In this document: positions 1 to 46,633 of the stretch, one piece after another
Numbering within the stretch: position 1 is the first letter of the stretch
How the letters are laid out: each line of letters begins with the position of its first letter
NCBI GenBank assembly: GCA_964016885.1
Contig: OZ024748.1
Span: forward strand, 29,140,001 to 29,204,000
Direction of reading: 5' to 3'
DNA: 64,000 nucleotides
From: Eledone cirrhosa
Taxonomy: Eukaryota
The notes under the pieces: model-generated
The model's input: the letters and a program-made list of their open reading frames with translations, nothing else
Database searches by the model: none
What the model was told of the DNA's origin: nothing
Position numbers and translations under genes: made by a program

Positions 1-3000
1 AACTACAGTAGTTAGTATCACTAACTCCACCCTGAAACTACAGTAGTTAGTATCACTAACTCTACCCTAAAACTACAGTAGTTAGTATCACTAACTCCAC
101 CCTGAAACTACAGTAGTTAGTATCACTAACTCTACCCTAAAACTACAGTAGTTAGTATCACTAACTTCACCCTGAAACTACAGTAGTTAGTATCACTAAC
201 TCCACCCTAAAACTACAGTAGTTAGAATCACTAACTCCACCCTAAAACTTCAGTAGTTAGTATCACTAACTCCACCCTGAAACTACAGTTGTTAGAATCA
301 CTAACTCCACCCTGAAACTACAGTTGTTAGAATCACTAACTCCACCCTGAAACTACAGTAGTTAGAATCACTAACTCCACCCTGAAACTACAGTAGTTAG
401 TATCACTAACTCCACCCTGAAACTACAGTAGTTAGTATCATTAACTCCACCCTGAAACTACAGTAGTTAGTATCACTAACTCCACCCTGAAACTACAGTA
501 GTTAGTATCACTAACTCCACCCTGAAACTACAGTAGTTAGAATCACTAACTCCACCCTGAAACTACAGTAGTTAGTATCACTAACTCCACCCTGAAACTT
601 CAGTAGTTAGTATCACTAACTCCACCCTAAAACTATTTTAGTTAGTATCACTAACTCCACCCTGAAACTACAGTAGTTAGTATCAATAACACCACCCTGA
701 AACTACAGTAGTTAGTATCACTAACTCCACCTGAAACTACAGTAGTTAGTATCACTAACTCTACCCTAAAACTACAGTAGTTAGAATCACTAACTCCACC
801 CTGAAACTACAGTAGTTAGTATCACTAACTCCACCCTGAAACTTCAGTAGTTAGTATCACTAACTCCACCCTAAAACTATTTTAGTTAGTATCACTAACT
901 CCACCCTAAAACTACAGTAGTTAGAATCACTAACTCCACCCTAAAACTACAGTAGTTAGTATCACTAACTCCACCCTGAAACTACAATAGTTAGTATCAC
1001 TAACTCCACCCTGAAACTACAGTAGTTAGTATCACTAACTCCACCCTAAAACTACAGTAGTTAGTATCACTAACTCCACCCTGAAACTTCAGTAGTTAGA
1101 ATCACTAACTCCACCCTGAAACTACAGTAGTTAGTATCACTAACTCCACCCTAAAACTACAGTAGTTAGTATCACTAACTCCACCCTGAAACTACAGTAG
1201 TTAGTATCACTAACTCCACCCTAAAACTACAGTAGTTAGTATCACTAACTCCACCCTGAAACTTCAGTAGTTAGAATCACTAACTCCACCCTGAAACTTC
1301 AGTAGTTAGAATCACTAACTCCACCCTGAAACTACAGTAGTTAGTATCACTAACTCCACCCTAAAACTACAGTAGTTAGTATCACTAACTCCACCCTGAA
1401 ACTTCAGTAGTTAGAATCACTAACTCCACCCTGAAACTTCAGTAGTTAGAATCACTAACTCCACCCTGAAACTACAGTAGTTAGAATCACTAACTCCACC
1501 CTGAAACTACAGTAGTTAGTATCACTAACTCCACCCTAAAACTACAGTAGTTAGTACCACTAACTCCACCCTGAAACTACAGTAGTTAGAATCACTAACT
1601 CCACCCTAAAACTACAGTAGTTAGTATCACTAACTCCACCCTGAAACTACAGTAGTTAGAATCACTAACTCCACCCTGAAACTACAGTAGTTAGTATCAC
1701 TAACTCTACCCTAAAACTACAGTAGTTAGTATCACTAACTTCACCCTGAAACTACAGTAGTTAGAATCACTAACTCCACCCTAAAACTACAGTAGTTAGA
1801 ATCACTAACTCCACCCTGAAACTACAGTAGTTAGTATCACTAACTCCACCCTGAAACTTCAGTAGTTAGTATCACTAACTCCACCCTAAAACTATTTTAG
1901 TTAGTATCACTAACTCCACCCTAAAACTACAGTAGTTAGAATCACTAACTCCACCCTAAAACTACAGTAGTTAGTATCACTAACTCCACCCTGAAACTAC
2001 AATAGTTAGTATCACTAACTCCACCCTGAAACTACAGTAGTTAGTATCACTAACTCCACCCTAAAACTACAGTAGTTAGTATCACTAACTCCACCCTGAA
2101 ACTTCAGTAGTTAGAATCACTAACTCCACCCTGAAACTACAGTAGTTAGTATCACTAACTCCACCCTAAAACTACAGTAGTTAGTATCACTAACTCCACC
2201 CTGAAACTACAGTAGTTAGTATCACTAACTCCACCCTGAAACTACAGTAGTTAGTATCACTAACTCCATCCTGAAACTTCAGTAGTTAGAATCACTAACT
2301 CCACCCTGAAACTTCAGTAGTTAGAATCACTAACTCCACCGTAAAACTACAGTAGTTAGTATCACTAACTCCACCCTGAAACTTCAGTAGTTAGAATCAC
2401 TAACTCCACCCTGAAACTTCAGTAGTTAGAATCACTAACTCCACCCTGAAACTACAGTAGTTAGTATCACTAACTCCACCCTAAAACTACAGTAGTTAGT
2501 ATCACTAACTCCACCCTGAAACTACAGTTGTTAGAATCACTAACTCCACCCTGAAACTACAGTTGTTAGAATCACTAACTCCACCCTGAAACTACAGTAG
2601 TTAGAATCACTAACTCCACCCTGAAACTATAGTAGTTAGTATCACTAACTCCACCCTGAAACTACAGTAGTTAGTATCACTAACTCCACCCTGAAACTAC
2701 AGTTGTTAGAATCACTAACTCCACCCTGAAACTACAGTAGTTAGTATCACTAACTCTACCCTGAAACTACAGTAGTTAGTATCACTAACTTCACCCTGAA
2801 ACTACAGTAGTTAGAATCACTAACTCCACCCTAAAACTACAGTAGTTAGAATCACTAACTCCACCCTAAAACTACAGTAGTTAGTATCACTAACTCCACC
2901 CTAAAACTACAGTAGTTAGAATCACTAACTCCACCCTAAAACTTCAGTAGTTAGTATCACTAACTCCACCCTAAAACTACAGTAGTTAGAATCACTAACT

Positions 3001-6000
3001 CCACCCTGAAACTACAGTAGTTAGAATCACTAACTCCACCCTGAAACTACAGTAGTTAGTATCACTAACTCCACCCTGAAACTACAGTAGTTAGTATCAC
3101 TAACTCTACCCTAAAACTACAGTAGTTAGTATCACTAACTCCACCCTGAAACTACAGTAGTTAGTATCACTAACTCTACCCTAAAACTACAGTAGTTAGT
3201 ATCACTAACTTCACCCTGAAACTACAGTAGTTAGTATCACTAACTCCACCCTAAAACTACAGTAGTTAGAATCACTAACTCCACCCTAAAACTTCAGTAG
3301 TTAGTATCACTAACTCCACCCTGAAACTACAGTTGTTAGAATCACTAACTCCACCCTGAAACTACAGTTGTTAGAATCACTAACTCCACCCTGAAACTAC
3401 AGTAGTTAGAATCACTAACTCCACCCTGAAACTACAGTAGTTAGTATCACTAACTCCACCCTGAAACTACAGTAGTTAGTATCATTAACTCCACCCTGAA
3501 ACTACAGTAGTTAGTATCACTAACTCCACCCTGAAACTACAGTAGTTAGTATCACTAACTCCACCCTGAAACTACAGTAGTTAGAATCACTAACTCCACC
3601 CTGAAACTACAGTAGTTAGTATCACTAACTCCACCCTGAAACTTCAGTAGTTAGTATCACTAACTCCACCCTAAAACTATTTTAGTTAGTATCACTAACT
3701 CCACCCTGAAACTACAGTAGTTAGTATCAATAACACCACCCTGAAACTACAGTAGTTAGTATCACTAACTCCACCTGAAACTACAGTAGTTAGTATCACT
3801 AACTCTACCCTAAAACTACAGTAGTTAGAATCACTAACTCCACCCTGAAACTACAGTAGTTAGTATCACTAACTCCACCCTGAAACTTCAGTAGTTAGTA
3901 TCACTAACTCCACCCTAAAACTATTTTAGTTAGTATCACTAACTCCACCCTAAAACTACAGTAGTTAGAATCACTAACTCCACCCTAAAACTACAGTAGT
4001 TAGTATCACTAACTCCACCCTGAAACTACAATAGTTAGTATCACTAACTCCACCCTGAAACTACAGTAGTTAGTATCACTAACTCCACCCTAAAACTACA
4101 GTAGTTAGTATCACTAACTCCACCCTGAAACTTCAGTAGTTAGAATCACTAACTCCACCCTGAAACTACAGTAGTTAGTATCACTAACTCCACCCTAAAA
4201 CTACAGTAGTTAGTATCACTAACTCCACCCTGAAACTACAGTAGTTAGTATCACTAACTCCACCCTAAAACTACAGTAGTTAGTATCACTAACTCCACCC
4301 TGAAACTTCAGTAGTTAGAATCACTAACTCCACCCTGAAACTTCAGTAGTTAGAATCACTAACTCCACCCTGAAACTACAGTAGTTAGTATCACTAACTC
4401 CACCCTAAAACTACAGTAGTTAGTATCACTAACTCCACCCTGAAACTTCAGTAGTTAGAATCACTAACTCCACCCTGAAACTTCAGTAGTTAGAATCACT
4501 AACTCCACCCTGAAACTACAGTAGTTAGAATCACTAACTCCACCCTGAAACTACAGTAGTTAGTATCACTAACTCCACCCTAAAACTACAGTAGTTAGTA
4601 CCACTAACTCCACCCTGAAACTACAGTAGTTAGAATCACTAACTCCACCCTAAAACTACAGTAGTTAGTATCACTAACTCCACCCTGAAACTACAGTAGT
4701 TAGAATCACTAACTCCACCCTGAAACTACAGTAGTTAGTATCACTAACTCTACCCTAAAACTACAGTAGTTAGTATCACTAACTTCACCCTGAAACTACA
4801 GTAGTTAGAATCACTAACTCCACCCTAAAACTACAGTAGTTAGAATCACTAACTCCACCCTGAAACTACAGTAGTTAGTATCACTAACTCCACCCTGAAA
4901 CTTCAGTAGTTAGTATCACTAACTCCACCCTAAAACTATTTTAGTTAGTATCACTAACTCCACCCTAAAACTACAGTAGTTAGAATCACTAACTCCACCC
5001 TAAAACTACAGTAGTTAGTATCACTAACTCCACCCTGAAACTACAATAGTTGGTATCACTAACTCCACCCTGAAACTACAGTAGTTAGTATCACTAACTC
5101 CACCCTAAAACTACAGTAGTTAGTATCACTAACTCCACCCTGAAACTTCAGTAGTTAGAATCACTAACTCCACCCTGAAACTACAGTAGTTAGTATCACT
5201 AACTCCACCCTAAAACTACAGTAGTTAGTATCACTAACTCCACCCTGAAACTACAGTAGTTAGTATCACTAACTCCACCCTGAAACTACAGTAGTTAGTA
5301 TCACTAACTCCATCCTGAAACTTCAGTAGTTAGAATCACTAACTCCACCCTGAAACTTCAGTAGTTAGAATCACTAACTCCACCGTAAAACTACAGTAGT
5401 TAGTATCACTAACTCCACCCTGAAACTTCAGTAGTTAGAATCACTAACTCCACCCTGAAACTTCAGTAGTTAGAATCACTAACTCCACCCTGAAACTACA
5501 GTAGTTAGTATCACTAACTCCACCCTAAAACTACAGTAGTTAGTACCACTAACTCCACCCTGAAACTACAGTAGTTAGGATCACTAACTCCACCCTAAAA
5601 CTACAGTAGTTAGTATCACTAACTCCACCCTGAAACTACAGTAGTTAGTATCACTAACTCCACCCTGAAACTACAGTAGTTAGTATCACTAACTCCTCCC
5701 TAAAACTACAGTAGTTAGTATCACTAACTCCACCCTGAAACTACAGTAGTTAGTATCACTAACTCCACCCTAAAACTACAGTAGTTAGTATCACTAACTC
5801 CACCCTGAAACTACAGTAGTTAGAATCACTAACTCCACCCTGAAACTACAGTAGTTAGTATCACTAACTCCACCCTGAAACTACAGTAGTTAGTATCACT
5901 AACTCCACCCTGAAACTACAGTAGTTAGTATCAATAACTCCACCCTGAAACTACAGTAGTTAGAATCACTAACTCCACCCTAAAACTACAGTAGTTAGAA

Positions 6001-9000
6001 TCACTAACTCTACCCTAAAACTACAGTAGTTAGAATCACTAACTCCACCCTGAAACTACAGTAGTTAGTATCACTAACTCCACCCTGAAACTACAGTAGT
6101 TAGAATCACTAACTCCACCCTAAAACTACAGTAGTTAGAATCACTAACTCCACCCTAAAACTACAGTAGTTAGTATCACTAACTCTACCATAAAACTACA
6201 GTAGTTAGTATCACTAACTCTACCCTAAAACTACAGTAGTTAGTATCACTAACTCCACCCTGAAACTACAGTAGTTAGTATCACTAACTCCACCCTAAAA
6301 CTACAGTAGTTAGAATCACTAACTCCACCCTAAAACTACAGTAGTTAGTATCACTAACTCCACCCTAAAACTATTTTAGTTAGTATCACTAACTCCACCC
6401 TGAAACTACAGTAGTTAGTATCACTAACTCCACCCTAAAACTACAGTAGTTAGAATCACTAACTCCACCCTAAAACTTCAGTAGTTAGTATCACTAACTC
6501 CACCCTGAAACTACAGTTGTTAGAATCACTAACTCCACCCTGAAACTACAGTTGTTAGAATCACTAACTCCACCCTGAAACTACAGTAGTTAGAATCACT
6601 AACTCCACCCTAAAACTACAGTAGTTAGTATCACTAACTCCACCCTGAAACTACAGTAGTTAGTATCACTAACTCCACCCTGAAACTACAGTAGTTAGTA
6701 TCACTAACTCCACCCTAAAACTACAGTAGTTAGTATCACTAACTCCACCCTGAAACTACAGTAGTTAGTATCACTAACTCCACCCTAAAACTACAGTAGT
6801 TAGTATCACTAACTCCACCCTGAAACTACAGTAGGTAGAATCACTAACTCCACCCTGAAACTACAGTAGTTAGTATCACTAACTCCACCCTGAAACTACA
6901 GTAGTTAGTATCACTAACTCCACCCTGAAACTACAGTAGTTAGTATCAATAACTCCACCCTGAAACTACAGTAGTTAGAATCACTAACTCCACCCTAAAA
7001 CTACAGTATTTAGAATCACTAACTCTACCCTAAAACTACAGTAGTTAGAATCACTAACTCCACCCTGAAACTACAGTAGTTAGTATGACTAACTCCACCC
7101 TGAAACTACAGTAGTTAGAATCACTAACTCCACCCTAAAACTACAGTAGTTAGAATCACTAACTCCACCCTAAAACTACAGTAGTTAGTATGACTAACTC
7201 CACCCTAAAACTACAGTAGTTAGTATCACTAACTCTACCCTAAAACTACAGTAGTTAGTATCACTAACTTCACCCTGAAACTACAGTAGTTAGAATCACT
7301 AACTCCACCCTGAAACTACAGTAGTTAGAATCACTAACTCCACCCTGAAACTACAGTAGTTAGTATCACTAACTCCACCCTGAAACTACAGTAGTTAGTA
7401 TCACTAACTCCACCCTAAAACTACAGTAGTTAGAATCACTAACTCCACCCTGAAACTACAGTTGTTAGAATCACTAACTCCACCCTGAAACTACAGTAGT
7501 TAGAATCACTAACTCCACCCTGAAACTACAGTAGTTAGTATCACTAACTCCACCCTGAAACTACAGTAGTTAGAATCACTAACTCCACCCTAAAACTACA
7601 GTAGTTAGAATCACTAACTCCACCCTGAAACTACAGTAGTTAGTATCACTAACTCCACCCTGAAACTTCAGTAGTTAGTATCACTAACTCCACCCTAAAA
7701 CTATTTTAGTTAGTATCACTAACTCCACCCTAAAACTACAGTAGTTAGTATCACTAACTCCACCCTAAAACTATTTTAGTTAGTATCACTAACTCCACCC
7801 TGAAACTACAGTACTTAGTATCACTAACTCCACCCTAAAACTACAGTAGTTAGAATCACTAACTCCACCCTGAAACTACAGTAGTTAGTATCACTAACTC
7901 CACCCTGAAACTACAGTAGTTAGTATCACTAACTCCACCCTAAAACTATTTTAGTTAGTCTCACTAACTCCACCCTAAAACTACAGTAGTTAGTATCACT
8001 AGCTCCACCCTGAAACTACAGTAGTTAGTATCACTAACTCCACCCTAAAACTATTTTAGTTAGTATCACTAACTCCACCCTAAAACTACAGTAGTTAGTA
8101 TCACTAACTCCACCCTAAAACTACAGTAGTTAGAATCGCTAACTCCACCCTAAAACTACAGTAGTTAGTATCACTAACTCCACCCTGAAACTACAGTAGT
8201 TAGTATCACTAACTCTACCCTAAAACTACAGTAGTTAGTATCACTAACTCTACCCTAAAACTACAGTAGTTAGTATCACTAACTCCACCCTAAAACTACA
8301 GTAGTTAGAATCGCTAACTCCACCCTAAAACTACAGTCGTTAGAATCACTAACTCCACCCTGAAACTACAGTAGTTAGTATCACTAACTCCACCCTGAAA
8401 GTACAGTAGTTAGAATCACTAACTCCACCCTAAAATTACAGTAGTTAGTATCACTAACTCCACCCTGAAACTACAGTAGTTAGTATCACTAACTCCACCC
8501 TGAAACTACAGTAGTTAGAATCACTAACTCCACCCTAAAACTACAGTAGTTAGTGTCACTAACTCCACCCTGAAACTACAGTAGTTAGTATCACTAACTC
8601 CACCCTAAAACTACAGTAGTTAGTATCACTAACTCCACCCTGAAACTACAGCAGTTAGTATCACTAACTCCACCCTGAAACTACAGTAGTTAGAATCACT
8701 AACTCCACCCTGAAACTACAGTAGTTAGTATCACTAACTCCACCCTGAAACTACAGTAGTTAGTATCACTAACTCCACCCTAAAACTACAGTAGTTAGTA
8801 TCACTAACTCCACCCTGAAACTTCAGTAGTTAGAATCACTAACTCCACCCTGAAACTTCAGTAGTTAGAATCACTAACTCCACCCTGAAACTACAGTAGT
8901 TAGTATCACTAACTCCACCCTGAAACTACAGTAGTTAGTATCATTAACTCCACCCTGAAACTACAGTAGTTAGTATCACTAACTCCACCCTGAAACTACA

Positions 9001-12000
9001 GTAGTTAGTATCACTAACTCCACCCTGAAACTACAGTAGTTAGAATCACTAACTCCACCCTGAAACTACAGTAGTTAGTATCACTAACTCCGCCCTGAAA
9101 CTTCAGTAGTTAGAGTCACTAACTCCACCCTAAAACTACAGTAGTTACTATCACTAACTCCACCCTGAAACTTCAGTAGTTAGTATCACTAACTCCACCC
9201 TGAAACTACAGTACTTAGTATCACTAACTCCACCCTGAAACTTCAGTAGTTAGAATCACTAACTCCACCCTGAAACTACAGTAGTTAGAATCACTAACTC
9301 CACCCTAAAACTACAGTAGTTAGTATCACTAACTCCACCCTGAAACTTCAGTAGTTAGAATCACTAACTCCACCCTGAAACTACAGTAGTTAGTATCACT
9401 AACTCCACCCTGAAACTTCAGTAGTTAGTGTTACTAACTCCACCCTGAAACTTCAGTAGTTAGAATCACTAACTCCACCCTAAAACTACAGTAGTTAGAA
9501 TCATTAACTCCACCCTAAAACTACAGTAGTTAGTATCACTAACTCCACCCTGAAACTACAGTAGTTAGTATCACTAACTCCACCCTGAAACTACAGTAGT
9601 TAGAATCACTAACTCCACCCTAAAACTACAGTAGTTAGTATCACTAACTCCACCCTGAAACTTCAGTAGTTAGAATCACTAACTCCACCCTAAAACTACA
9701 GTAGTTAGTATCACTAACTCCACCCTGAAACTTCAGTAGTTAGAATCACTAACTCCACCCTGAAACTTCAGTAGTTCGAATCACTAACTCCACCCTGAAA
9801 CTACAGTAGTTAGTATCACTAACTCCACCCTGAAACTTCAGTAGTTAGAATCACTAACTCCACCCTGAAACTTCAGTAGTTAGAATCACTAACTCCACCC
9901 TGAAACTACAGTAGTTAGAATCACTAACTCCACCCTGAAACTACAGTAGTTAGTATCACTAACTCCACCCTGAAACTACAGTAGTTAGTATCAATAACTC
10001 CACCCTGAAACTACAGTAGTTAGAATCACTAACTCCACCCTGAAACTACAGTAGTTAGAATCACTAACTCCACCCTGAAACTACAGTAGTTAGTATCACT
10101 AACTCCACCCTGAAACTTCAGTAGTTAGTATCACTAACTCCACCCTAAAACTATTTTAGTTAGTATCACTAACTCCACCCTGAAACTACAGTAGTTAGTA
10201 CCAATAACACCACCCTGAAACTACAGTAGTTAGAATCATTAACTCCACCCTAAAACTACAGTAGTTAGTATCACTAACTCCACCCTGAAACTACAGTAGT
10301 TAGTATCACTAACTCCACCCTGAAACTACAGTAGTTAGAATCACTAACTCCACCCTAAAACTACAGTAGTTAGTGTCACTAACTCCACCCTGAAACTACA
10401 GTAGTTAGTATCACTAACTCCACCCTAAAACTACAGTAGTTAGTATCACTAACTCCACCCTGAAACTACAGCAGTTAGTATCACTAACTCCACCCTGAAA
10501 CTACAGTAGTTAGAATCACTAACTCCACCCTGAAACTACAGTAGTTAGTATCACTAACTCCACCCTGAAACTACAGTAGTTAGTATCACTAACTCCACCC
10601 TAAAACTACAGTAGTTAGTATCACTAACTCCACCCTGAAACTTCAGTAGTTAGAATCACTAACTCCACCCTGAAACTTCAGTAGTTAGAATCACTAACTC
10701 CACCCTGAAACTACAGTAGTTAGTATCAATAACTCCACCCTGAAACTACAGTAGTTAGTATCATTAACTCCACCCTGAAACTACAGTAGTTAGTATCACT
10801 AACTCCACCCTGAAACTACAGTAGTTAGTATCACTAACTCCACCCTGAAGCTACAGTAGTTAGTATCACTAACTCCGCCCTGAAACTTCAGTAGTTAGAG
10901 TCACTAACTCCACCCTAAAACTACAGTAGTTACTATCACTAACTCCACCCTGAAACTTCAGTAGTTAGTATCACTAACTCCACCCTGAAACTACAGTACT
11001 TAGTATCACTAACTCCACCCTGAAACTTCAGTAGTTAGAATCACTAACTCCACCCTGAAACTACAGTAGTTAGAATCACTAACTCCACCCTAAAACTACA
11101 GTAGTTAGTATCACTAACTCCACCCTGAAACTTCAGTAGTTAGAATCACTAACTCCACCCTGAAACTACAGTAGTTAGTATCACTAACTCCACCCTGAAA
11201 CTTCAGTAGTTAGAGTCACTAACTCCACCCTAAAACTACAGTAGTTAGAATCACTAACTCTACCCTGAAACTACAGTAGTTAGTATCACTAACTCCACCC
11301 TGAAACTTCAGTAGTTAGAATCACTAACTCCACCCTGAAACTACAGTAGTTAGTATCACTAACTCCACCCTGAAACTTCAGTAGTTAGAATCACTAACTC
11401 CACCCTGAAACTTCAGTAGTTAGAATCACTAACTCCACCCTAAAACTACAGTAGTTAGAATCATTAACTCCACCCTAAAACTACAGTAGTTAGTATCACT
11501 AACTCCACCCTGAAACTACAGTAGTTAGTATCACTAACTCCACCCTGAAACTACAGTAGTTAGAATCACTAACTCCACCCTAAAACTACAGTAGTTAGTA
11601 TCACTAACTCCACCCTGAAACTTCAGTAGTTAGAATCACTAACTCCACCCTAAAACTACAGTAGTTAGTATCACTAACTCCACCCTGAAACTTCAGTAGT
11701 TAGAATCACTAACTCCACCCTGAAACTTCAGTAGTTCGAATCACTAACTCCACCCTGAAACTACAGTAGTTAGTATCACTAACTCCACCCTGAAACTTCC
11801 ATAGTTAGAATCACTAACTCCACCCTGAAACTTCAGTAGTTAGAATCACTAACTCCACCCTGAAACTACAGTAGTTAGAATCACTAACTCCACCCTGAAA
11901 CTACAGTAGTTAGTATCACTAACTCCACCCTGAAACTACAGTAGTTAGTATCAATAACTCCACCCTGAAACTACAGTAGTTAGAATCACTAACTCCACCC

Positions 12001-15000
12001 TAAAACTACAGTAGTTAGTATCACTAACTCTACCCTAAAACTACAGTAGTTAGTATCACTAACTCTACCATAAAACTACAGTAGTTAGTATCACTAACTC
12101 TACCCTAAAACTACAGTAGTTAGTATCACTAACTCCACCCTGAAACTACAGTAGTTAGTATCACTAACTCCACCCTGAAACTACAGTAGTTAGAATCACT
12201 AACTCCACCCTGAAACTACAGTAGTTAGTATCACTAACTCCACCCTGAAACTTCAGTAGTTAGAATCACTAACTCCACCCTGAAACTACAGTAGTTAGAA
12301 TCACTAACTCCACCCTGAAACTTCAGTAGTTAGAATCACTAACTCCACCCTGAAACTTCAGTAGTTAGAATCACTAACTCCACCCTGAAACTTCAGTAGT
12401 TAGAATCACTAACTCCACCCTGAAACTACAGTAGTTAGTATCACTAACTCCACCCTAAAAATATTTTAGTTAGAATCACTAACTCCACCGTGAAACTACA
12501 GTAGTTAGAATCACTAACTCCACTCTGAAACTACAGTAGTTAGAATCACTAACTCCACCCTGAAACTACAGTAGTTAGTATCACTAACTCCACCCTGAAA
12601 CTTCAGTAGTTAGAATCACTAACTCCACCCTGAAACTACAGTAGTTAGAATCACTAACTCCACCCTGAAACTACAGTAGTTAGTATCACTAACTCCACCC
12701 TGAAACTTCAGTAGTTAGAATCACTAACTCCACCCTGAAACTACAGTAGTGAGAATCACTAACTCCACCCTGAAACTTCAGTAGTTAGAATCACTAACTC
12801 CACCCTGAAACTTCAGTAGTTAGAATCACTAACTCCACCCTGAAACTTCAGTAGTTAGAATCACTAACTCCACCCTGAAACTTCAGTAGTTAGAATCACT
12901 AACTCCACCCTGAAACTTCAGTAGTTAGAATCACTAACTCCACCCTGAAACTTCAGTAGTTAGAATCACTAACTCCACCCTAAAACTACAGTAGTTAGTA
13001 TCACTAACTCCACCCTGAAACTTCAGTAGTTAGTATCACTAACTCCATCCTGAAACTACAGTAGTTAGTATCACTAACTCCACCCTGAAACTTCAGTAGT
13101 TAGAATCACTAACTCCACCCTGAAACTACAGTAGTTAGAATCACTAACTCCACCCTAAAACTACAGTAGTTAGTATCACTAACTCCACCCTGAAACTTCA
13201 GTAGTTAGAATCACTAACTCCACCCTGAAACTACAGTAGTTAGAATCACTAACTCCACCCTGAAACTACAGTAGTTAGTATCACTAACTCCACCCTGAAA
13301 CTTCAGTAGTTAGAATCACTAACTCCACCCTAAAACTACAGTAGTTAGTGTCACTAACTCCACCCTGAAACTTCAGTAGTTAGTATCACTAACTCCACCC
13401 TTAAACTACAGTAGTTAGTATCACTAACTCCACCCTTAAACTACAGTAGTTAGTATCACTAACTCCACCCTGAAACTACAGTAGTTAGAATCACTAACTC
13501 CACCCTCAAACTTCAGTAGTTTGAATCACTAACTCCACCCTGAAACTTCAGTAGTTAGAATCACTAACTCCACCCTGAAACTTCAGTAGTTAGAATCACT
13601 AACTCCACCCTGAAACTACAGTAGTTAGTAGCACTAACTCCACCCTGAAACTACAGTAGTTAGTATCACTAACTCCACCCTGAAACTACAGTAGTTAGAA
13701 TCACTAACTCCACCGTGAAACTACAGTAGTTAGAATCACTAACTCCACCCTGAAACTACAGTAGTTAGTATCACTAACTCCACCCTGAAACTTCAGTAGT
13801 TAGAATCACTAACTCCACCCTGAAACTACAGTAGTTAGAATCACTAACTCCACCCTGAAACTACAGTAGTTAGTATCACTAACTCCACCCTGAAACTTCA
13901 GTAGTTAGAATCACTAACTCCACCCTGAAACTACAGTAGTTAGTATCACTAACTCCACCCTGAAACTACAGTAGTTAGAATCACTAACTCCACCCTAAAA
14001 CTACAGTAGTTAGTATCACTAACTCCACCCTGAAACTACAGTAGTTAGTATCACTAACTCCACCCTGAAACTACAGTAGTTAGAATCACTAACTCCACCC
14101 TAAAACTACAGTAGTTAGTATCACTAACTCCACCCTGAAACTTCAGTAGTTAGAATCACTAACTCCACCCTAAAACTACAGTAGTTAGTATCACTAACTC
14201 CACCCTGAAACTTCAGTAGTTAGAATCACTAACTCCACCCTGAAACTTCAGTAGTTCGAATCACTAACTCCACCCTGAAACTACAGTAGTTAGTATCACT
14301 AACTCCACCCTGAAACTTCAGTAGTTAGAATCACTAACTCCACCCTGAAACTTCAGTAGTTAGAATCACTAACTCCACCCTGAAACTACAGTAGTTAGAA
14401 TCACTAACTCCACCCTGAAACTACAGTAGTTAGTATCACTAACTCCACCCTGAAACTACAGTAGTTAGTATCAATAACTCCACCCTGAAACTACAGTAGT
14501 TAGAATCACTAACTCCACCCTGAAACTACAGTAGTTAGAATCACTAACTCCACCCTGAAACTACAGTAGTTAGTATCACTAACTCCACCCTGAAACTTCA
14601 GTAGTTAGTATCACTAACTCCACCCTAAAACTACAGTAGTTAGTATCACTAACTCCACCCTGAAACTACAGCAGTTAGTATCACTAACTCCACCCTGAAA
14701 CTACAGTAGTTAGAATCACTAACTCCACCCTGAAACTACAGTAGTTAGTATCACTAACTCCACCCTGAAACTACAGTAGTTAGTATCACTAACTCCACCC
14801 TAAAACTACAGTAGTTAGTATCACTAACTCCACCCTAAAACTACAGTAGTTAGTATCACTAACTCCACCCTGAAACTACAGCAGTTAGTATCACTAACTC
14901 CACCCTGAAACTACAGTAGTTAGAATCACTAACTCCACCCTGAAACTACAGTAGTTAGTATCACTAACTCCACCCTGAAACTACAGTAGTTAGTATCACT

Positions 15001-33000: not shown

Positions 33001-36000
33001 TGAAACTACAGTAGTTAGAATCACTAACTCCACCCTGCAACTACAGTAGTTAGAATCACTAACTCCACCCTGAAACTACAGTAGTTAGTATCACTAACTC
33101 CACCCTGAAACTTCAGTAGTTAGTATCACTAACTCCACCCTGAAACTTCAGTAGTTAGAGTCACTAACTCCACCCTAAAACTACAGTAGTTAGAATCACT
33201 AACTCCACCCTAAAACTACAGTAGTTAGAATCACTAACTCTACCCTGAAACTACAGTAGTTAGAATCACTAACTCCACCCTGAAACTACAGTAGTTAGTA
33301 TCACTAACTCCACCCTGAAACTTCAGTAGTTAGAATCACTAACTCCACCCTGAAACTACAGTAGTTAGTATCACTAACTCCACCCTGAAACTTCAGTAGT
33401 TAGAATTACTAACTCCACCCTGAAACTACAGTAGTTAGAATCACTAACTCCACCCTAAAACTACAGTAGTTAGTATCACTAACTCCACCCTGAAACTTCA
33501 GTAGTTAGAATCACTAACTCCACCCTGAAACTTCAGTAGTTAGAATCACTAACTCCACCCTGAAACTACAGTAGTTAGTATCACTAACTCCACCCTGAAA
33601 CTTCAGTAGTTAGAATCACTAACTCCACCCTGAAACTACAGTAGTTAGAATCACTAACTCCACCCTGAAACTTCAGTAGTTAGAATCACTAACTCCACCC
33701 TAAAACTACAGTAGTTAGAATCACTAACTCCACCCTGAAACTTCAGTAATTAGAATCACTAACTCCACCCTGAAACTACAGTAGTTAGAATCACTAACTC
33801 CACCCTGAAACTTCAGTAATTAGAATCACTAACTCCACCCTAAAACTACAGTAATTAGTATCACTAACTCTACCCTAAAACTACAGTAGTTAGTATCACT
33901 AACTCCACCCTGAAACTACAGTAGTTAGAATCACTAACTCCACCCTGAAACTACAGTAGTTAGAATCACTAACTCCACCCTGAAACTACAGTAGTTAGTA
34001 TCACTAACTCCACCCTGAAACTGCAGTAGTTAGAATCACTAACTCCACCCTAAAACTACAGTAGTTAGAATCACTAACTCCACTCTGAAACTTCAGTAAT
34101 TAGAATCACTAACTCCACCCTGAAACTACAGTAGTTAGAATCACTAACTCCACCCTGAAACTTCAATAATTAGTATCACTAACTCCACCCTGAAACTACA
34201 GTAGTTAGAATCACTAACTCCACCCTGAAACTTCAGTAGTTAGAATCACTAACTCCACCCTTAAACTACAGTAGTTAGTATCACTAACTCCACCCTGAAA
34301 CTACAGTAGTTAGAATCACTAACTCCACCCTCAAACTTCAGTAGTTTGAATCACTAACTCCACCCTGAAACTACAGTAGTTAGTATCACTAACTCCACCC
34401 TGAAACTTCAGTAGTTAGAATCACTAACTCCACCCTGAAACTTCAGTAGTTAGAATCACTAACTCCACCCTGAAACTACAGTAGTTAGTAGCACTAACTC
34501 CACCCTGAAACTACAGTAGTTAGTATCACTAACTCCACCCTGAAACTACAGTAGTTAGAATCACTAACTCCACCGTGAAACTACAGTAGTTAGAATCACT
34601 AACTCCACTCTGAAACTACAGTAGTTAGAATCACTAACTCCACCCTGAAACTACAGTAGTTAGTATCACTAACTCCACCCTGAAACTTCAGTAGTTAGAA
34701 TCACTAACTCCACCCTGAAACTACAGTAGTTAGAATCACTAACTCCACCCTGAAACTACAGTAGTTAGTATCACTAACTCCACCCTGAAACTTCAGTAGT
34801 TAGAATCACTAACTCCACCCTGAAACTACAGTAGTTAGAATCACTAACTCCACCCTGAAACTTCAGTAGTGAGAATCACTAACTCCACCCTGAAACTTCA
34901 GTAGTTAGAATCACTAACTCGACCCTGAAACTTCAGTAGTTAGAATCACTAACTCCACCCTGAAACTTCAGTAGTTAGAATCACTAACTCCACCCTAAAA
35001 CTACAGTAGTTAGTATCACTAACTCCACCCTGAAACTTCAGTAGTTAGAATCACTAACTCCACCCTGAAACTTCAGTAGTTAGAATCACTAACTCCACCC
35101 TGAAACTTCAGTAGTTAGAATCACTAACTCCACCCTGAAACTTCAGTAGTTAGAATCACTAACTCCACCCTGAAACTTCAGTAGTTAGAATCACTAACTC
35201 CACCCTAAAACTACAGTAGTTAGTATCACTAACTCCACCCTGAAACTTCAGTAGTTAGAATCACTAACTCCACCCTGAAACTTCAGTAGTTAGAATCACT
35301 AACTCCACCCTGAAACTACAGTAGTTAGAATCACTAACTCCACCCTGAAACTACAGCAGTTAGTATCACTAACTCCACCCTGAAACTTCAGTAGTTAGAA
35401 TCACTAACTCCACCCTGAAACTACAGTAGTTAGTATCACTAACTCCACCCTGAAACTTCAGTAGTTAGAATCACTAACTCCACCCTGAAACTACAGTAGT
35501 TAGTATCACTAACTCCACCCTGAAACTTCAGTAGTTAGAATCACTAACTCCACCCTGAAACTACAGTAGTTAGAATCACTAACTCCACCCTAAAACTACA
35601 GTAGTTAGTATCACTAACTCCACCCTGAAACTACAGTAGTTAGTATCACTAACTCCACCCTGAAACTACAGTAGTTAGTATCACTAACTCCACCCTGAAA
35701 CTACAGTAGTTAGAATCACTAACTCCACCCTAAAACTACAGTAGTTAGAATCACTAACTCCACCCTGAAACTACAGTAGTTAGTATCACTAACTCCACCC
35801 TGAAACTTCAGTAGTTAGAATCACTAACTCCACCCTGAAACTACAGTAATTAGAATCACTAACTCCACCCTAAAACTACAGTAGTTAGTATCACTAACTC
35901 CACCCTGAAACTACAGTAGTTAGTATCACTAACTCCACCCTGAAACTACAGTAGTTAGTATCACTAACTCCACCCTGAAACTACAGTAGTTAGTATTACT

Positions 36001-39000
36001 AACTCTACCCTAAAACTACAGTAGTTAGAATCACTAACTCCACCCTGAAACTACAGTAGTTAGAATCACTAACTCCACCCTAAAACTACAGTAGTTAGTA
36101 TCACTAACTCCACCCTGAAACTTCAGTAGTTAGAATCACTAACTCCACCCTGAAACTTCAGTAGTTAGAATCACTAACTCCACCCTGAAACTTCAGTAGT
36201 TAGAATCACTAACTCCACCCTGAAACTTCAGTAGTTAGAATCACTAACTCCACCCTGAAACTTCAGTAGTTAGAATCACTAACTCCACCCTAAAACTACA
36301 GTAGTTAGTATCACTAACTCCACCCTGAAACTTCAGTAGTTAGAATCACTAACTCCACCCTGAAACTTCAGTAGTTAGAATCACTAACTCCACCCTGAAA
36401 CTACAGTAGTTAGAATCACTAACTCCACCCTGAAACTACAGCAGTTAGTATCACTAACTCCACCCTGAAACTTCAGTAGTTAGAATCACTAACTCCACCC
36501 TGAAACTACAGTAGTTAGTATCACTAACTCCACCCTGAAACTTCAGTAGTTAGAATCACTAACTCCACCCTGAAACTTCAGTAGTTAGAATCACTAACTC
36601 CACCCTGAAACTACAGTAGTTAGTATCACTAACTCCACCCTGAAACTTCAGTAGTTAGAGTCACTAACTCCACCCTGAAACTACAGTAGTTAGTATCACT
36701 AACTCCACCCTGAAACTTCAGTAGTTAGAATCACTAACTCCACCCTGAAACTACAGTAGTTAGAATCACTAACTCCACCCTAAAACTACAGTAGTTAGTA
36801 TCACTAACTCCACCCTGAAACTACAGTAGTTAGTATCACTAACTCCACCCTGAAACTACAGTAGTTAGTATCACTAACTCCACCCTGAAACTACAGTAGT
36901 TAGAATCACTAACTCCACCCTAAAACTACAGTAGTTAGAATCACTAACTCCACCCTGAAACTACAGTAGTTAGTATCACTAACTCCACCCTGAAACTTAA
37001 GTAGTTAGAATCACTAACTCCACCCTGAAACTACACTAATTAGAATCAGTAACTCCACCCTAAAACTACAGTAGTTAGTATCACTAACTCCACCCTGAAA
37101 CTACAGTAGTTAGTATCACTAACTCCACCCTGAAACTACAGTAGTTAGTATCACTAACTCCACCCTGAAACTACAGTAGTTAGTATTACTAACTCTACCC
37201 TAAAACTACAGTAGTTAGAATCACTAACTCCACCCTGAAACTACAGTAGTTAGAATCACTAACTCCACCCTGAAACTTCAGTAGTTATAATCACTAACTC
37301 CACCCTGAAACTACAGTAGTTAGAATCACTCACTCCACCCTGAAACTTCAGTAGTTAGAATCACTAACTCCACCCTGAAACTACAGTAGTTAGAATCACT
37401 AACTCCACCCTGAAACTACAGTAGTTAGAATCACTAACTCCACCCTGAAACTTCAGTAGTTAGAATCACTAACTCCACCCTGAAACTTCAGTAGTTAATA
37501 TCACTAACTCCACCCTAAAACTACAGTAGTTAGAATCACTAACTCCACCCTGAAACTACAGTAATTAGAATGACTAACTCCACCCTGAAACTACATTAGT
37601 TAGTATCACTAACTCCACCCTGAAACTACAGTAGTTAGTATCACTAACTCCACCTTGAAACTACAGTAGTTAGAATCACTAACTCCACCCTGAAACTACA
37701 GTAGTTAGAATCACTAACTCCACCCTGAAACTACAGTAGTTAGAATCACTAACTCCACCCTGAAACTACAGTAGTTAGAATCACTAACTCCACCCTGAAA
37801 CTACAGTAGTTACAATCACTAACTCCACCCTGAAACTACAGTAGTTAGAATCACTAACTCCACCCTGAAACTACAGTAGTTAGTATCACTAACTCCACCC
37901 TGAAACTACAGTAGTTAGTATCACTAACTCCACCCTGAAACTACAGTAGTTAGAATCACTAACTCCACCCTGAAACTACAGTAGTTAGAATCACTAACTC
38001 CACCCTGAAACTACAGTAGTTAGAATCACTAACTCCACCCTGAAACTACAGTAGTTAGTATCACTAACTCCACCCTAAAACTACAGTAGTTAGAATCACT
38101 AACTCCAACCTGAAACTACAGTAGTTAGAATCACTAACTCCACCCTAAAACTACAGTAGTTAATATCACTAACTCCACCCTGAAACTACACTAGTTAGTA
38201 TCACTAACTCCACCCTGAAACTACAGTAGTTAGTATCACTAACTCTACCCTAAAACTACAGTAGTTAGTATCACTAACTCCACCCTGAAACTACAGTAGT
38301 TAGTATCACTAACTCCACCCTGAAACTACAGTAGTTAGAATCACTAACTCCACCCTGAAACTACAGTAGTTAGAATCACTAACTCCACCCTGAAACTACA
38401 GTAGTTAGTATCACTAACTCCACCCTGAAACTTCAGTAGTTAGTATCACTAACTCCACCCTGAAACTTCAGTAGTTAGAGTCACTAACTCCACCCTAAAA
38501 CTACAGTAGTTAGAATCACTAACTCCACCCTAAAACTACAGTAGTTAGAATCACTAACTCTACCCTGAAACTACAGTAGTTAGAATCACTAACTCCACCC
38601 TGAAACTACAGTAGTTAGTATCACTAACTCCACCCTGAAACTTCAGTAGTTAGAATCACTAACTCCACCCTGAAACTACAGTAGTTAGTATCACTAACTC
38701 CACCCTGAAACTTCAGTAGTTAGAATCACTAACTCCACCCTGAAACTACAGTAGTTAGAATCACTAACTCCACCCTAAAACTACAGTAGTTAGTATCACT
38801 AACTCCACCCTGAAACTTCAGTAGTTAGAATCACTAACTCCACCCTGAAACTTCAGTAGTTAGAATCACTAACTCCACCCTGAAACTACAGTAGTTAGTA
38901 TCACTAACTCCACCCTGAAACTTCAGTAGTTAGAATCACTAACTCCACCCTGAAACTACAGTAGTTAGAATCACTAACTCCACCCTGAAACTTCAGTAGT

Positions 39001-42000
39001 TAGAATCACTAACTCCACCCTAAAACTACAGTAGTTAGAATCACTAACTCCACCCTGAAACTTCAGTAATTAGAATCACTAACTCCACCCTGAAACTACA
39101 GTAGTTAGAATCACTAACTCCACCCTGAAACTTCAGTAATTAGAATCACTAACTCCACCCTAAAACTACAGTAATTAGTATCACTAACTCTACCCTAAAA
39201 CTACAGTAGTTAGTATCACTAACTCCACCCTGAAACTACAGTAGTTAGTATCACTAACTCCACCCTGAAACTACAGTAGTTAGAATCACTAACTCCACCC
39301 TGAAACTACAGTAGTTAGAATCACTAACTCCACCCTGAAACTACAGTAGTTAGTATCACTAACTCCACCCTGAAACTGCAGTAGTTAGAATCACTAACTC
39401 GACCCTAAAACTACAGTAGTTAGAATCACTAACTCCACCCTGAAACTTCAGTAATTAGAATCACTAACTCCACCCTGAAACTACAGTAGTTAGAATCACT
39501 AACTCCACCCTGAAACTTCAGTAATTAGTATCACTAACTCCACCCTGAAACTACAGTAGTTAGAATCACTAACTCCACCCTGAAACTTCAGTAGTTAGAA
39601 TCACTAACTCCACCCTAAAACTACAGTAGTTATAATCACTAACTCCACCCTGAAACTTCAGTAGTTAGAATCATTAACTCCACCCTGAAACTACAGTAGT
39701 TAGAATCATTAACTCCACCCTGAAACTACAGTAGTTAGAATCACTAACTCCACCCTAAAACTACAGTAGTTAGTATCACTAACTCCACCCTGAAACTACA
39801 GTAGTTAGTATCACTAACTCCACCCTGAAACTTCAGTAGTTAGAATCACTAACTCCACCCTGAAACTACAGTAGTTAGAATCACTAACTCCACCCTGAAA
39901 CTTCAGTAGTTAGAATCACTAACTCCACCCTAAAACTACAGTAGTTAGAATCACTAACTCCACCCTGAAACTTCAGTAATTAGAATCACTAACTCCACCC
40001 TGAAACTACAGTAGTTAGAATCACTAACTCCACCCTGAAACTTCAGTAATTAGAATCACTAACTCCACCCTAAAACTACAGTAATTAGTATCACTAACTC
40101 TACCCTAAAACTACAGTAGTTAGTATCACTAACTCCACCCTGAAACTACAGTAGTTAGTATCACTAACTCCACCCTGAAACTACAGTAGTTAGAATCACT
40201 AACTCCACCCTGAAACTACAGTAGTTAGAATCACTAACTCCACCCTGAAACTACAGTAGTTAGTATCACTAACTCCACCCTGAAACTGCAGTAGTTAGAA
40301 TCACTAACTCGACCCTAAAACTACAGTAGTTAGAATCACTAACTCCACCCTGAAACTTCAGTAATTAGAATCACTAACTCCACCCTGAAACTACAGTAGT
40401 TAGAATCACTAACTCCACCCTGAAACTTCAGTAATTAGTATCACTAACTCCACCCTGAAACTACAGTAGTTAGAATCACTAACTCCACCCTGAAACTTCA
40501 GTAGTTAGAATCACTAACTCCACCCTAAAACTACAGTAGTTATAATCACTAACTCCACCCTGAAACTTCAGTAGTTAGAATCATTAACTCCACCCTGAAA
40601 CTACAGTAGTTAGAATCACTAAGTCCACCCTGAAACTACAGTAGTTAGTATCACTAACTCCACCCTAAAACTACAGTAGTTAGTATCACTAACTCCACCC
40701 TGAAACTACAGTAGTTAGTATCACTAACTCCACCCTGAAACTACAGTAGTTAGTATCACTAACTCCACCCTGAAACTACAGTAGTTAGAATCACTAACTC
40801 TACCCTGAAACTACAGTAGTTAGTATCACTAACTCCACCCTGAAACTACAGTAGTTAGTATCACTAACTCCATCCTGAAACTACAGTAGTTAGTATCATT
40901 AACTCCACCCTGAAACTACAGTAGTTAGTATCACTAACTCCACCCTAAAACTATTTTAGTTAGTATCACTAACTCCACCCTAAAACTACAGTAGTTAGAA
41001 TCACTAACTCCACCCTAAAACTACAGTAGTTAGAATCACTAACTCCACCCTGAAACTACAGTAGTTAGAATCACTAACTCCACCCTAAAACTACAGTAGT
41101 TAATATCACTAACTCCACCCTGAAACTACAGTAGTTAGTATCACTAACTCCACCCTAAAACTACAGTAGTTAGTATCACTAACTCCACCCTGAAACTACA
41201 GTAGTTAGTATCACTAACTCCACCCTAAAACTACAGTAGTTAGAATCACTAACTCCAACCTGAAACTACAGTAGTTAGAATCACTAACTCCACCCTAAAA
41301 CTACAGTAGTTAATATCACTAACTCCACCCTGAAACTACAGTAGTTAGTATCACTAACTCCACCCTGAAACTACAGTAGTTAGTATCACTAACTCTACCC
41401 TAAAACTACAGTAGTTAGTATCACTAACTCCACCCTGAAACTACAGTAGTTAGTATCACTAACTCCACCCTGAAACTACAGTAGTTAGAATCACTAACTC
41501 CACCCTGAAACTACAGTAGTTAGAATCACTAACTCCACCCTGAAACTACAGTAGTTAGTATCACTAACTCCACCCTGAAACTTCAGTAGTTAGTATCACT
41601 AACTCTACCCTGAAACTTCAGTAGTTAGAGTCACTAACTCCACCCTAAAACTACAGTAGTTAGAATCACTAACTCCACCCTAAAACTACAGTAGTTAGAA
41701 TCACTAACTCTACCCTGAAACTACAGTAGTTAGAATCACTAACTCCACCCTGAAACTACAGTAGTTAGTATCACTAACTCCACCCTGAAACTTCAGTAGT
41801 TAGAATCACTAACTCCACCCTGAAACTACAGTAGTTAGTATCACTAACTCCACCCTGAAACTTCAGTAGTTAGAATCACTAACTCCACCCTGAAACTACA
41901 GTAGTTAGAATCACTAACTCCACCCTAAAACTACAGTAGTTAGTATCACTAACTCCACCCTGAAACTTCAGTAGTTAGAATCACTAACTCCACCCTGAAA

Positions 42001-45000
42001 CTTCAGTAGTTAGAATCACTAACTCCACCCTGAAACTACAGTAGTTAATATCACTAACTCCACCCTGAAACTTCAGTAGTTAGAATCACTAACTCCACCC
42101 TGAAACTACAGTAGTTAGAATCACTAACTCCACCCTGAAACTTCAGTAGTTAGAATCACTAACTCCACCCTAAAACTACAGTAGTTAGAATCACTAACTC
42201 CACCCTGAAACTTCAGTAATTAGAATCACTAACTCCACCCTGAAACTACAGTAGTTAGAATCACTAACTCCACCCTGAAACTTCAGTAATTAGAATCACT
42301 AACTCCACCCTAAAACTACAGTAATTAGTATCACTAACTCTACCCTAAAACTACAGTAGTTAGTATCACTAACTCCACCCTGAAACTACAGTAGTTAGTA
42401 TCACTAACTCCACCCTGAAACTACAGTAGTTAGAATCACTAACTCCACCCTGAAACTACAGTAGTTAGAATCACTAACTCCACCCTGAAACTACAGTAGT
42501 TAGTATCACTAACTCCACCCTGAAACTGCAGTAGTTAGAATCACTAACTCGACCCTAAAACTACAGTAGTTAGAATCACTAACTCCACCCTGAAACTTCA
42601 GTAATTAGAATCACTAACTCCACCCTGAAACTACAGTAGTTAGAATCACTAACTCCACCCTGAAACTTCAGTAATTAGTATCACTAACTCCACCCTGAAA
42701 CTACAGTAGTTAGAATCACTAACTCCACCCTGAAACTTCAGTAGTTAGAATCACTAACTCCACCCTAAAACTACAGTAGTTATAATCACTAACTCCACCC
42801 TGAAACTTCAGTAGTTAGAATCATTAACTCCACCCTGAAACTACAGTAGTTAGAATCACTAAGTCCACCCTGAAACTACAGTAGTTAGTATCACTAACTC
42901 CACCCTAAAACTACAGTAGTTAGTATCACTAACTCCACCCTGAAACTACAGTAGTTAGTATCACTAACTCCACCCTGAAACTACAGTAGTTAGTATCACT
43001 AACTCCACCCTGAAACTACAGTAGTTAGAATCACTAACTCTACCCTGAAACTACAGTAGTTAGTATCACTAACTCCACCCTGAAACTACAGTAGTTAGTA
43101 TCACTAACTCCATCCTGAAACTACAGTAGTTAGTATCATTAACTCCACCCTGAAACTACAGTAGTTAGTATCACTAACTCCACCCTAAAACTATTTTAGT
43201 TAGTATCACTAACTCCACCCTAAAACTACAGTAGTTAGAATCACTAACTCTACCCTGAAACTACAGTAGTTAATATCACTAACTCCACCCTAAAACTACA
43301 GTAGTTAGTATCACTAACTCCACCCTGAAACTACAGTAGTTAGAATCACTAACTCTACCCTGAAACTACAGTAGTTAATATCACTAACTCCACCCTAAAA
43401 CTACAGTAGTTAGTATCACTAACTCCACCCTAAAACTACAGTAGTTAGTATCACTAACTCCACCCTAAAACTACAGTAGTTAGAATCACTAACTCCAACC
43501 TGAAACTACAGTAGTTAGAATCACTAACTCCACCCTAAAACTACAGTAGTTAATATCACTAACTCCACCCTGAAACTACAGTAGTTAGTATCACTAACTC
43601 CACCCTGAAACTACAGTAGTTAGTATCACTAACTCTACCCTAAAACTACAGTAGTTAGTATCACTAACTCCACCCTGAAACTACAGTAGTTAGTATCACT
43701 AACTCCACCCTGAAACTACAGTAGTTAGAATCACTAACTCCACCCTGAAACTACAGTAGTTAGAATCACTAACTCCACCCTGAAACTACAGTAGTTAGTA
43801 TCACTAACTCCACCCTGAAACTTCAGTAGTTAGTATCACTAACTCCACCCTGAAACTTCAGTAGTTAGAGTCACTAACTCCACCCTAAAACTACAGTAGT
43901 TAGAATCACTAACTCCACCCTAAAACTACAGTAGTTAGAATCACTAACTCTACCCTGAAACTACAGTAGTTAGAATCACTAACTCCACCCTGAAACTACA
44001 GTAGTTAGTATCACTAACTCCACCCTGAAACTTCAGTAGTTAGAATCACTAACTCCACCCTGAAACTACAGTAGTTAGTATCACTAACTCCACCCTGAAA
44101 CTTCAGTAGTTAGAATCACTAACTCCACCCTGAAACTACAGTAGTTAGAATCACTAACTCCACCCTAAAACTACAGTAGTTAGTATCACTAACTCCACCC
44201 TGAAACTTCAGTAGTTAGAATCACTAACTCCACCCTGAAACTTCAGTAGTTAGAATCACTAACTCCACCCTGAAACTACAGTAGTTAGTATCACTAACTC
44301 CACCCTGAAACTTCAGTAGTTAGAATCACTAACTCCACCCTGAAACTACAGTAGTTAGAATCACTAACTCCACCCTGAAACTACAGTAGTTAGAATCACT
44401 AACTCCACCCTGAAACTACAGTAGTTAGAATCACTAACTCCACCCTAAAACTACAGTAGTTAGTATCACTAACTCCACCCTGAAACTTCAGTAGTTAGAA
44501 TCACTAACTCCACCCTGAAACTTCAGTAGTTAGAATCACTAACTCCACCCTGAAACTACAGTAGTTAGTATCACTAACTCCACCCTGAAACTTCAGTAGT
44601 TAGAATCACTAACTCCACCCTGAAACTACAGTAGTTAGAATCACTAACTCCACCCTGAAACTTCAGTAGTTAGAATCACTAACTCCACCCTAAAACTACA
44701 GTAGTTAGAATCACTAACTCCACCCTGAAACTTCAGTAATTAGAATCACTAACTCCACCCTGAAACTACAGTAGTTAGAATCACTAACTCCACCCTGAAA
44801 CTTCAGTAATTAGAATCACTAACTCCACCCTAAAACTACAGTAATTAGTATCACTAACTCTACCCTAAAACTACAGTAGTTAGTATCACTAACTCCACCC
44901 TGAAACTACAGTAGTTAGTATCACTAACTCCACCCTGAAACTACAGTAGTTAGAATCACTAACTCCACCCTGAAACTACAGTAGTTAGAATCACTAACTC

Positions 45001-46083
45001 CACCCTGAAACTACAGTAGTTAGTATCACTAACTCCACCCTGAAACTGCAGTAGTTAGAATCACTAACTCGACCCTAAAACTACAGTAGTTAGAATCACT
45101 AACTCCACCCTGAAACTTCAGTAATTAGAATCACTAACTCCACCCTGAAACTTCAGTAGTTAGTATCACTAACTCCACCCTGAAACTTCAGTAATTAGTA
45201 TCACTAACTCCACCCTGAAACTACAGTAGTTAGAATCACTAACTCCACCCTGAAACTTCAGTAGTTAGAATCACTAACTCCACCCTAAAACTACAGTAGT
45301 TAGAATCACTAACTCCACCCTGAAACTTCAGTAGTTAGAATCATTAACTCCACCCTGAAACTACAGTAGTTAGAATCACTAAGTCCACCCTGAAACTACA
45401 GTAGTTAGTATCACTAACTCCACCCTAAAACTACAGTAGTTAGTATCACTAACTCCACCCTGAAACTACAGTAGTTAGTATCACTAACTCCACCCTGAAA
45501 CTACAGTAGTTAGTATCACTAACTCCACCCTGAAACTACAGTAGTTAGAATCACTAACTCTACCCTGAAACTACAGTAGTTAGTATCACTAACTCCACCC
45601 TGAAACTACAGTAGTTAGTATCACTAACTCCACCCTGAAACTACAGTAGTTAGTATCATTAACTCCACCCTGAAACTACAGTAGTTAGTATCACTAACTC
45701 CACCCTAAAACTATTTTAGTTAGTATCACTAACTCCACCCTGAAACTTCAGTAGTTAGTATCACTAACTCCACCCTAAAACTACAGTAGTTAGAATAACT
45801 AACTCCACCCTGAAACTACAGTAGTTAGAATCACTAACTCCACCCTGAAACTTCAGTAGTTAGTATCACTAACTCCACCCTAAAACTACAGTAGTTAGTA
45901 TCACTAACTCCACCCTGAAACTACAGTAGTTAGAATCACTAACTCCACCCTGAAACTATTGTAGTTAGTTTCATTAACTCCACCCTAAAACTACAGTAGT
46001 TAGTATCACTAACTCCACCCTAAAACTACAGTAGTTAGTATCACTAATTTCACTTTGAAACTAGAATTGTTAGTATCACTAAA
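1..46083. repeat. 35-bp tandem satellite array (~1,316 monomers), consensus AACTACAGTAGTTAG(T/A)ATCACTAACTCCACCCT(G/A)A, open at the left edge of the window
   Basis: Monomers start at 1, 36, 71 and so on. Three common dimorphic sites: CT[A/T]CAG, TTAG[T/A]ATC, CCCT[G/A]AA. The ORF track is empty across the array. The last monomers (45950-46083) are degenerate. Confidence 0.99.
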
Positions 46084-46478: not shown

Positions 46479-46633
46479 AAAAGGAAGAAAAGGAATATGG
46501 GGCGTTTACGTCAAAGAAGGCATAAGAAGAATCATCGGTTGACACAATTTATTTTAGCTCGTCAGGCTCAGAAAGAAGTGAGGAAACAAGAGGAGGAGGC
46601 TGTGCAATTGGATAAAGCTAGAGAAAGATTAAG
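46479..46633 (+). CDS. First visible coding exon of a SAFB/SLTM-like gene (start of charged coiled-coil region); 5' boundary uncertain
   Basis: Translates KRKKRNMGRLRQRRHKKNHRLTQFILARQAQKEVRKQEEEAVQLDKARERL(R). Donor AAG|GTTTGT at 46634 is phase 2, matching the next exon. Candidate 5' ends: weak AAG acceptor at 46478, TAG acceptor at 46557, or in-frame ATG at 46497. Confidence 0.6.

Follow-up and report, generated by a model that had tools for sequence, protein, structure and literature searches.

In minisatellite and satellite arrays with interspersed variant units, turnover proceeds through unequal exchange, through conversion and through the duplication of blocks. The array described here, a tandem repeat of a 35-bp unit in Eledone cirrhosa, is like them in that its dimorphic sites are shuffled among units, its linkage decays over 6–17 bp, and it contains nested 3,044-bp block duplications and old units at its edge. 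It is unlike them in that a short ancestral state survives in six paralogs, and in that only this copy grew, beside an insertion of about 1.2 kb.

Some of the variants in this array are clustered changes that perfect an inverted repeat. In this they resemble quasi-palindrome correction, or short-range template switching, as formulated in the Ripley model, in the four-point model (PMC5453318), in the homogenisation of yeast inverted repeats (PMC8604942) and in PMC8794818. PMC5453318 notes that matches of less than 12–13 bp are often a product of chance and applies filters at 10 and 14 bp, while accepting that short events can happen. PMC8604942 reports genes significant against simulation in 8 of 42 cases for arms of 7 bp, 11 of 16 for 8 bp and 10 of 10 for 9–11 bp. 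Events are recorded from 6 nt upwards, and compared with simulations, in PMC8794818. Here the arms are of 5–8 bp, within the range of chance, and the complete set of alleles shows no excess over a matched null, in both of which respects the array departs from quasi-palindrome correction.

A third comparison is with the dyad symmetries that, according to PMC5889037, are enriched at many centromeres. The present unit is like those dyad-rich satellites in being short, in having dyads below 10 bp and in folding better than its shuffles, and it differs from them in belonging to a single intronic locus of 53 kb, where stem-shortening alleles are common. Were hairpin-templated mutation to give satellites their dyad symmetry, the centromeric enrichment described in PMC5889037 could be mutational rather than selected. 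The array allows a direct test of this: it shows no array-wide bias, and the test would probably have picked up a templated share of about 15% or above. A literature search of titles and abstract openings, with partial coverage, found no study of this array and no template-switch test in satellite units.

We conclude with good confidence that the variants are products of ordinary point mutation and of short exchanges between units, multiplied by block duplication, and that the completion of hairpins is no commoner than chance. Unequal exchange or slippage would have expanded an intronic repeat of 35 bases until it had about 1,500 units, and its alleles would have been shuffled among units by short exchanges. 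What is left over amounts to at most one or two instances of an already known type of mutation.

The array, its host gene and its paralogs

The array occupies positions 1..46082 (+) of the window (the whole 64,000-nucleotide stretch of contig OZ024748.1 that was analysed) with 1,316.7 copies of the unit. In total it extends over about 52.6 kb and about 1,500 units, 1,315 of them full units within the window and 185 upstream. To these 1,315 full units the analysed set (n = 1,500) adds 185 clean ones taken from 6.5 kb of upstream sequence. It leaves out two degenerate segments at the 5' edge, partial segments at the ends, and units with an insertion or with more than 8 differences. Units are numbered so that CCACCC is positions 1–6. 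Dimorphic sites in the 1,500 units are position 8 (G/A, 355 A), position 14 (A/T, 396 T) and position 25 (T/A, 768 A), and the full tally is 67 substitution alleles and one deletion allele.

Short head-to-tail units, interspersed variant units and block duplications, the marks of an expanded single-locus array, are all present. Of the 1,209 matches that a 23-nt pattern of the unit has across the 3-Gb genome, 1,196 belong to the array and the remaining 13 to six neighbouring paralogs; since every match falls in one or the other, the array is confined to a single locus. An exact second copy of the first 2,000 bases follows 3,044 bp further on (a block of 87 units, window 1–6100), which is either a recent duplication or an over-expansion in the assembly.

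The array is an expanded minisatellite inside an intron of an RRM gene, whose upstream exons (outside the window) match Pfam RRM_1 with E = 1.3e-5. The next exon is likely to lie at 46479..46633 (+), judging from splice-like ends and an open reading frame that is basic and charged. In Pfam, five frames of the window had no match and two upstream frames had only weak, sub-threshold matches; a search of the Atlas gave no usable match. We take the host gene to resemble SAFB/SLTM, and a nearby interspersed repeat presumably resembles a cephalopod element. Later introns contain other, unrelated tandem repeats, at window 50510–51470, 54019–54377 and 47324–47554 (periods of 35, 34 and 82 bp). Introns also hold fragments of retroelements of the reverse-transcriptase type, at 53005–53292, 55979–56500 and 61706–62146 of the window and at L002 3951–5024 (−), the last of which matches RVT_1 and PHD.

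Searches with the flanks found seven tandem copies of the RRM-containing gene at about 28.98–29.43 Mb (about 450 kb), two of them inverted. The same intronic minisatellite is present in all seven and is expanded in one only. The other six have a short array of about 4–11 units each, which is the ancestral state of the repeat. The sister copy differs from the array copy by 11 differences per 1,475 upstream bases. For the more distant paralogs, insertions that do not align inflate the flank distances, and only the closest pairs were used.

Directly before the array, inside the second minisatellite unit, there is a dispersed-repeat insertion of about 1.2 kb (L001, about 2308–3477). Its reading frames are retroelement-like, and 7 bp are duplicated at its ends. 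It is found in the expanded copy only (1/7) and is a possible trigger of the expansion. A more ambitious account is the birth of a satellite beside its own ancestors: an insertion of about 1.2 kb into an intronic minisatellite of 5–6 units, then an expansion of about 250-fold in one of seven gene copies, with the only two spreading multi-base variants written by correction between arms of 6–7 bp. Taken as a whole we consider it rather unlikely. If it were true, template switching with very short arms would be a real, if minor, source of variant units in satellites. Of greater use is the locus as such: it is a young satellite of 53 kb with its short ancestral state preserved in sister genes, so that alleles can be polarised.

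Hairpin motifs and the origin of the multi-base changes

The original prediction listed five motifs in which variants of the unit create a perfect hairpin, and a scan of the window located each of them at the coordinates given. The TTT allele at unit positions 15–17, on 8A, forms CTAAAACTATTTTAG, with 6-bp arms and a 3-nt loop (first at 627..641, +; 17 copies in the window). A single later substitution, 12A, on the TTT allele gives the zero-loop palindrome AAAATATTTT (first at 12458..12467, +; 12 copies). The pair 8C+23T on a 14T/25A unit gives TCAAACT-N5-AGTTTGA, with 7-bp arms (first at 13506..13524, +), in six copies starting at 13506, 24986, 27331, 28591, 28801 and 34331. The common allele 14T on 8G gives CTGAAACTTCAG (first at 592..603, +; 350 copies), one base being substituted and one pair gained, and 26G on 25T gives AGTTAGTGTCACTAACT (first at 8548..8564, +; 7 copies), where the loop of the main stem is closed to 1 nt.

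These hairpins had been attributed to multi-base changes. That is correct for the first and third motifs (CAG>TTT and 8C+23T) and only for these: 12A, 14T and 26G each alter one base, and their loops are of 0, 2 and 1 nt. Neither 12A nor 26G adds a pair or any gain in the predicted DNA fold, 14T changes the predicted fold by about −1.1 kcal/mol, and the stem of TTT is absent from the predicted fold of minimum energy. Of 18 copies of 26G, 10 are on 25A, where the stem is not completed. The original prediction was right to trace the recurrences of a motif to a small number of events; the six copies of 8C+23T go back to one event.

Haplotypes that lack a one-step parent number 6 of 116. In two of the six, TTT and 8C+23T, all changes lie in one perfect stem of at least 6 bp, against 0.125 expected (P about 0.006, with threshold and window chosen post hoc), and these two are the only multi-step haplotypes with more than one copy. 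The mirror-control stems are 3 and 0. Their arms are of 6–7 bp, and those of the five cited motifs of 5–8 bp; the candidates do not reach the lengths that would exclude chance, a copied fragment of 10–14 bp (PMC5453318) or arms of 8–9 bp and longer (mostly significant in PMC8604942). It is possible, although we put it at somewhat less than an even chance, that TTT, or the last step of 8C+23T, or both, were copied from the opposite arm in isolated template switches during replication and then amplified. This is a special case of the explanation that we prefer. In its favour, besides the excess among multi-step haplotypes and the mirror controls, are the exact inverted template for TTT described below and the lack of intermediates in the interior of the array. 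It is weakened by the post hoc choices, by the ease with which stems arise by chance, and by arms shorter than the 10–14 bp used in PMC5453318, even though events from 6 nt are included in PMC8794818.

For TTT, as in quasi-palindrome correction, a 6-nt inverted template (unit positions 6–11) reproduces CAG>TTT on 8A exactly, and no direct-repeat (slippage) template for the change was found. Among the 1,500 units all 36 copies of TTT are on 8A. They span 98% of the array, as the oldest alleles do, and because they are spread over nearly all of it TTT is likely to be an early allele. The same 1,500 units contain possible intermediates, namely TAG in 3, CAT in 2 and TTG in a single unit at the 3' edge of the array (45945..45979, +), which carries the old TTG allele on 8G together with 26T. 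TTG is likely to be the intermediate between CAG and TTT. It is present in 5 of the 6 paralogs, including the sister copy. The 35 paralog units caught by the unit pattern, which missed a few degenerate ones, have at positions 15–17 CAG (11), TTG (9), GAA (7), GAG (4), and AAG, TTT, GAT and TAG (1 each). These positions form the loop of the stem centred on 16 and are freely variable in the paralogs.

TTT has a one-step ancestor, which sets it apart from quasi-palindrome correction. The claim that there are no intermediates is not confirmed, given TTG in the paralogs and at 45945, TAG and CAT; 8A+TTG and 8G+TTT are absent among the 1,500 units. Common stepwise intermediates, which the original prediction named as a second refutation, are seen in the paralogs and not inside the array. 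The related claim, that TTT occurs only on the allele it complements, stands for all copies in the array and fails in the assembly of one paralog (L011, at position 29068388), where TTT is combined with the non-complementary 8G. Reads did not confirm this combination, three runs giving 0 contigs and one giving 2 reads. The TTT on G of L011 could be a conversion from the array, since this paralog is not the sister and has 34T in common with the last full unit of the array.

On the stepwise route, TTT would have come from standing TTG by one G>T, and the combination with 8A from an exchange within about 6 bp, the two taking place in either order. The route is supported by the paralogs, whose short ancestral arrays contain both TTG and 8A. 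An exchange between 8A and 14T, over the same interval of 6 bp, is seen in the 12 copies of 8A+14T. A one-base hairpin correction of 8A+TTG also fits; on this background a stem of at least 6 bp results from 14 of the 105 possible single changes, a measure of how easily chance would do the same. CAA (8 copies, for example at window 5030) and TTG are exact inversions of the loop within 5-bp arms, with a 13-nt template, a further likeness to quasi-palindrome correction. CAA is not counted as evidence of templating because it is also one G>A away from CAG.

The changes 8C and 23T fall one on each arm, and there is no single inverted template from which both could be copied. With changes on both arms, 8C+23T is not one template switch and needs two steps, another point at which the array parts from quasi-palindrome correction and one that counts against an isolated switch. 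In the interior of the array there are no units with 8C only or with 23T only, and no direct-repeat (slippage) template for the pair was found. Second steps that follow 8C or 23T and give a stem of at least 7 are 6 of 105, so that here too a chance stem is easily made. By the explanation preferred here, 8C+23T would have arisen in two steps with loss of the intermediate, and one last step, in this haplotype or in TTT, may have used the opposite arm as its template through quasi-palindrome correction; this would be an isolated event, not the mode in which the array evolves. With its intermediate missing, 8C+23T is the best remaining candidate for hairpin templating. Both multi-base haplotypes are fair candidates by their excess over expectation, one of them having a stepwise route and the other requiring two events.

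Other sources of 8C were considered. It could have come from the first unit of the array or the unit upstream of the insertion, both of which carry it; this is possible and weak, as a tract of about 14 bp or less is needed and the copies of 8C+23T are confined to the middle of the array. An origin from neighbouring 8T units is suggestive, 6 of 6 copies lying 1–2 units after one, and still requires two changes.

Pairing gained by chance across the array

The unit is already close to a palindrome. Its inverted repeats include a 7-bp main stem (19–25/29–35), a stem centred on 16 and a stem centred on 18 with 7 of 8 pairs. The ancestral-type unit has four registers with at least 6 pairs and at most 1 mismatch, and folds better than its shuffles (z = −2.3). 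On the five main backgrounds, 11–16 of the 105 possible substitutions give a perfect stem of at least 5 bp and 7–9 give one of at least 6 bp. Stems are therefore often completed by random changes.

The null used here keeps the base change and the background of each allele and draws the site at random (5,000 permutations). The 58 one-step alleles have a mean change in folding energy of +0.75 kcal/mol, against +0.70 expected, and 1 of the 58 stabilises the unit by more than 0.5 kcal/mol, against 2.9 expected; the picture is the same for the 102 edges of allele by background. With zero-length loops allowed, stems of at least 5 bp are formed by 8 of 61 one-step alleles (9.64 expected), or 9 of 61 (13.5 expected) when each allele is scored on its best parent. 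The most generous permutation takes all 67 alleles with their partner changes in place, TTT being counted three times and 8C+23T twice. Even so, stems of at least 6 bp are found in 11 of 67 against 9.95 expected (p = 0.40), and of at least 7 bp in 6 against 6.21. Looked at from the other side, 11 of 15 hairpin-making substitutions are observed, and 56 of 90 others (p = 0.56).

The original prediction proposed that the array evolves by hairpin-templated mutation, and named as its refutation a gain in pairing no greater than that of random changes. This is what was found: substitutions matched in spectrum gain as much, and the family offers a stepwise route to TTT. The power of the test is 0.29, 0.63, 0.89 and 0.97 for templated shares of 5, 10, 15 and 20% of alleles. 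Together with the lack of excess this makes a bias across the whole array unlikely, and leaves a few events compatible with the data. A process in which a large share of variants comes from template switching can call on the five hand-picked motifs and on 26T and 28T, each of which perfects a stem. In view of the permutations we regard it as highly improbable, and a share above about 15% is already contradicted. The 26T of the edge unit at 45945–45979 perfects an 8-bp stem (unit 7–14/22–29) and was counted in the null test.

Selection, errors and linkage

The other mechanism that had been proposed is selection for dyad symmetry, in which a centromere-like or structural role would keep the variants that perfect a stem. 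It would agree with the folding of the ancestral-type unit relative to shuffles, with the frequency of the stabilising 14T (396/1,500) and with the enrichment of dyads at many centromeres described in PMC5889037. The commonest derived allele, 25A (768/1,500), nevertheless costs the 7-bp main stem its innermost pair, and 672 of 1,500 units have this stem intact; a majority allele that shortens the main hairpin argues against selection. Sites in stems are as variable as sites outside them, with alleles in 11 of 12 against 25 of 30 for C and G, and in 14 of 30 against 17 of 33 for A and T, and the stem sites show no conservation. Copy number does not correlate with stabilisation (rho = −0.12, p = 0.38), and the copy-weighted energy of the unit is −3.92 kcal/mol, compared with −4.20 for the ancestral-type unit. 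The array is moreover a single intronic locus, and we regard selection of this kind as very improbable.

That the variants are errors of sequencing or assembly at hairpins, which can trouble long-read consensus, is scarcely credible: the exact 2,000-base repeat at lag 3,044 could be an over-expansion, but the variants recur in the same context of neighbouring units, and contigs of public runs (the best of which may be from the assembly's own sample) contain 25A and show very high repeat depth.

The linkage to which the original prediction drew attention, of the CTTCAG allele with one partner allele, is real, with 350 window copies of CTGAAACTTCAG against 4 of CTAAAACTTCAG. It calls for no special cause, since descent over 6 bp gives the same. 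The linked common alleles 14T and 25A convert an A–T pair to T–A in a 3-bp register (13–15/24–26), too short to be set against chance. D' falls with distance, its values at 6, 11 and 17 bp being −0.95, 0.78 and −0.35, and other alleles also avoid 8A, namely 19T (0/24), 1T (0/17) and 30A (0/12).
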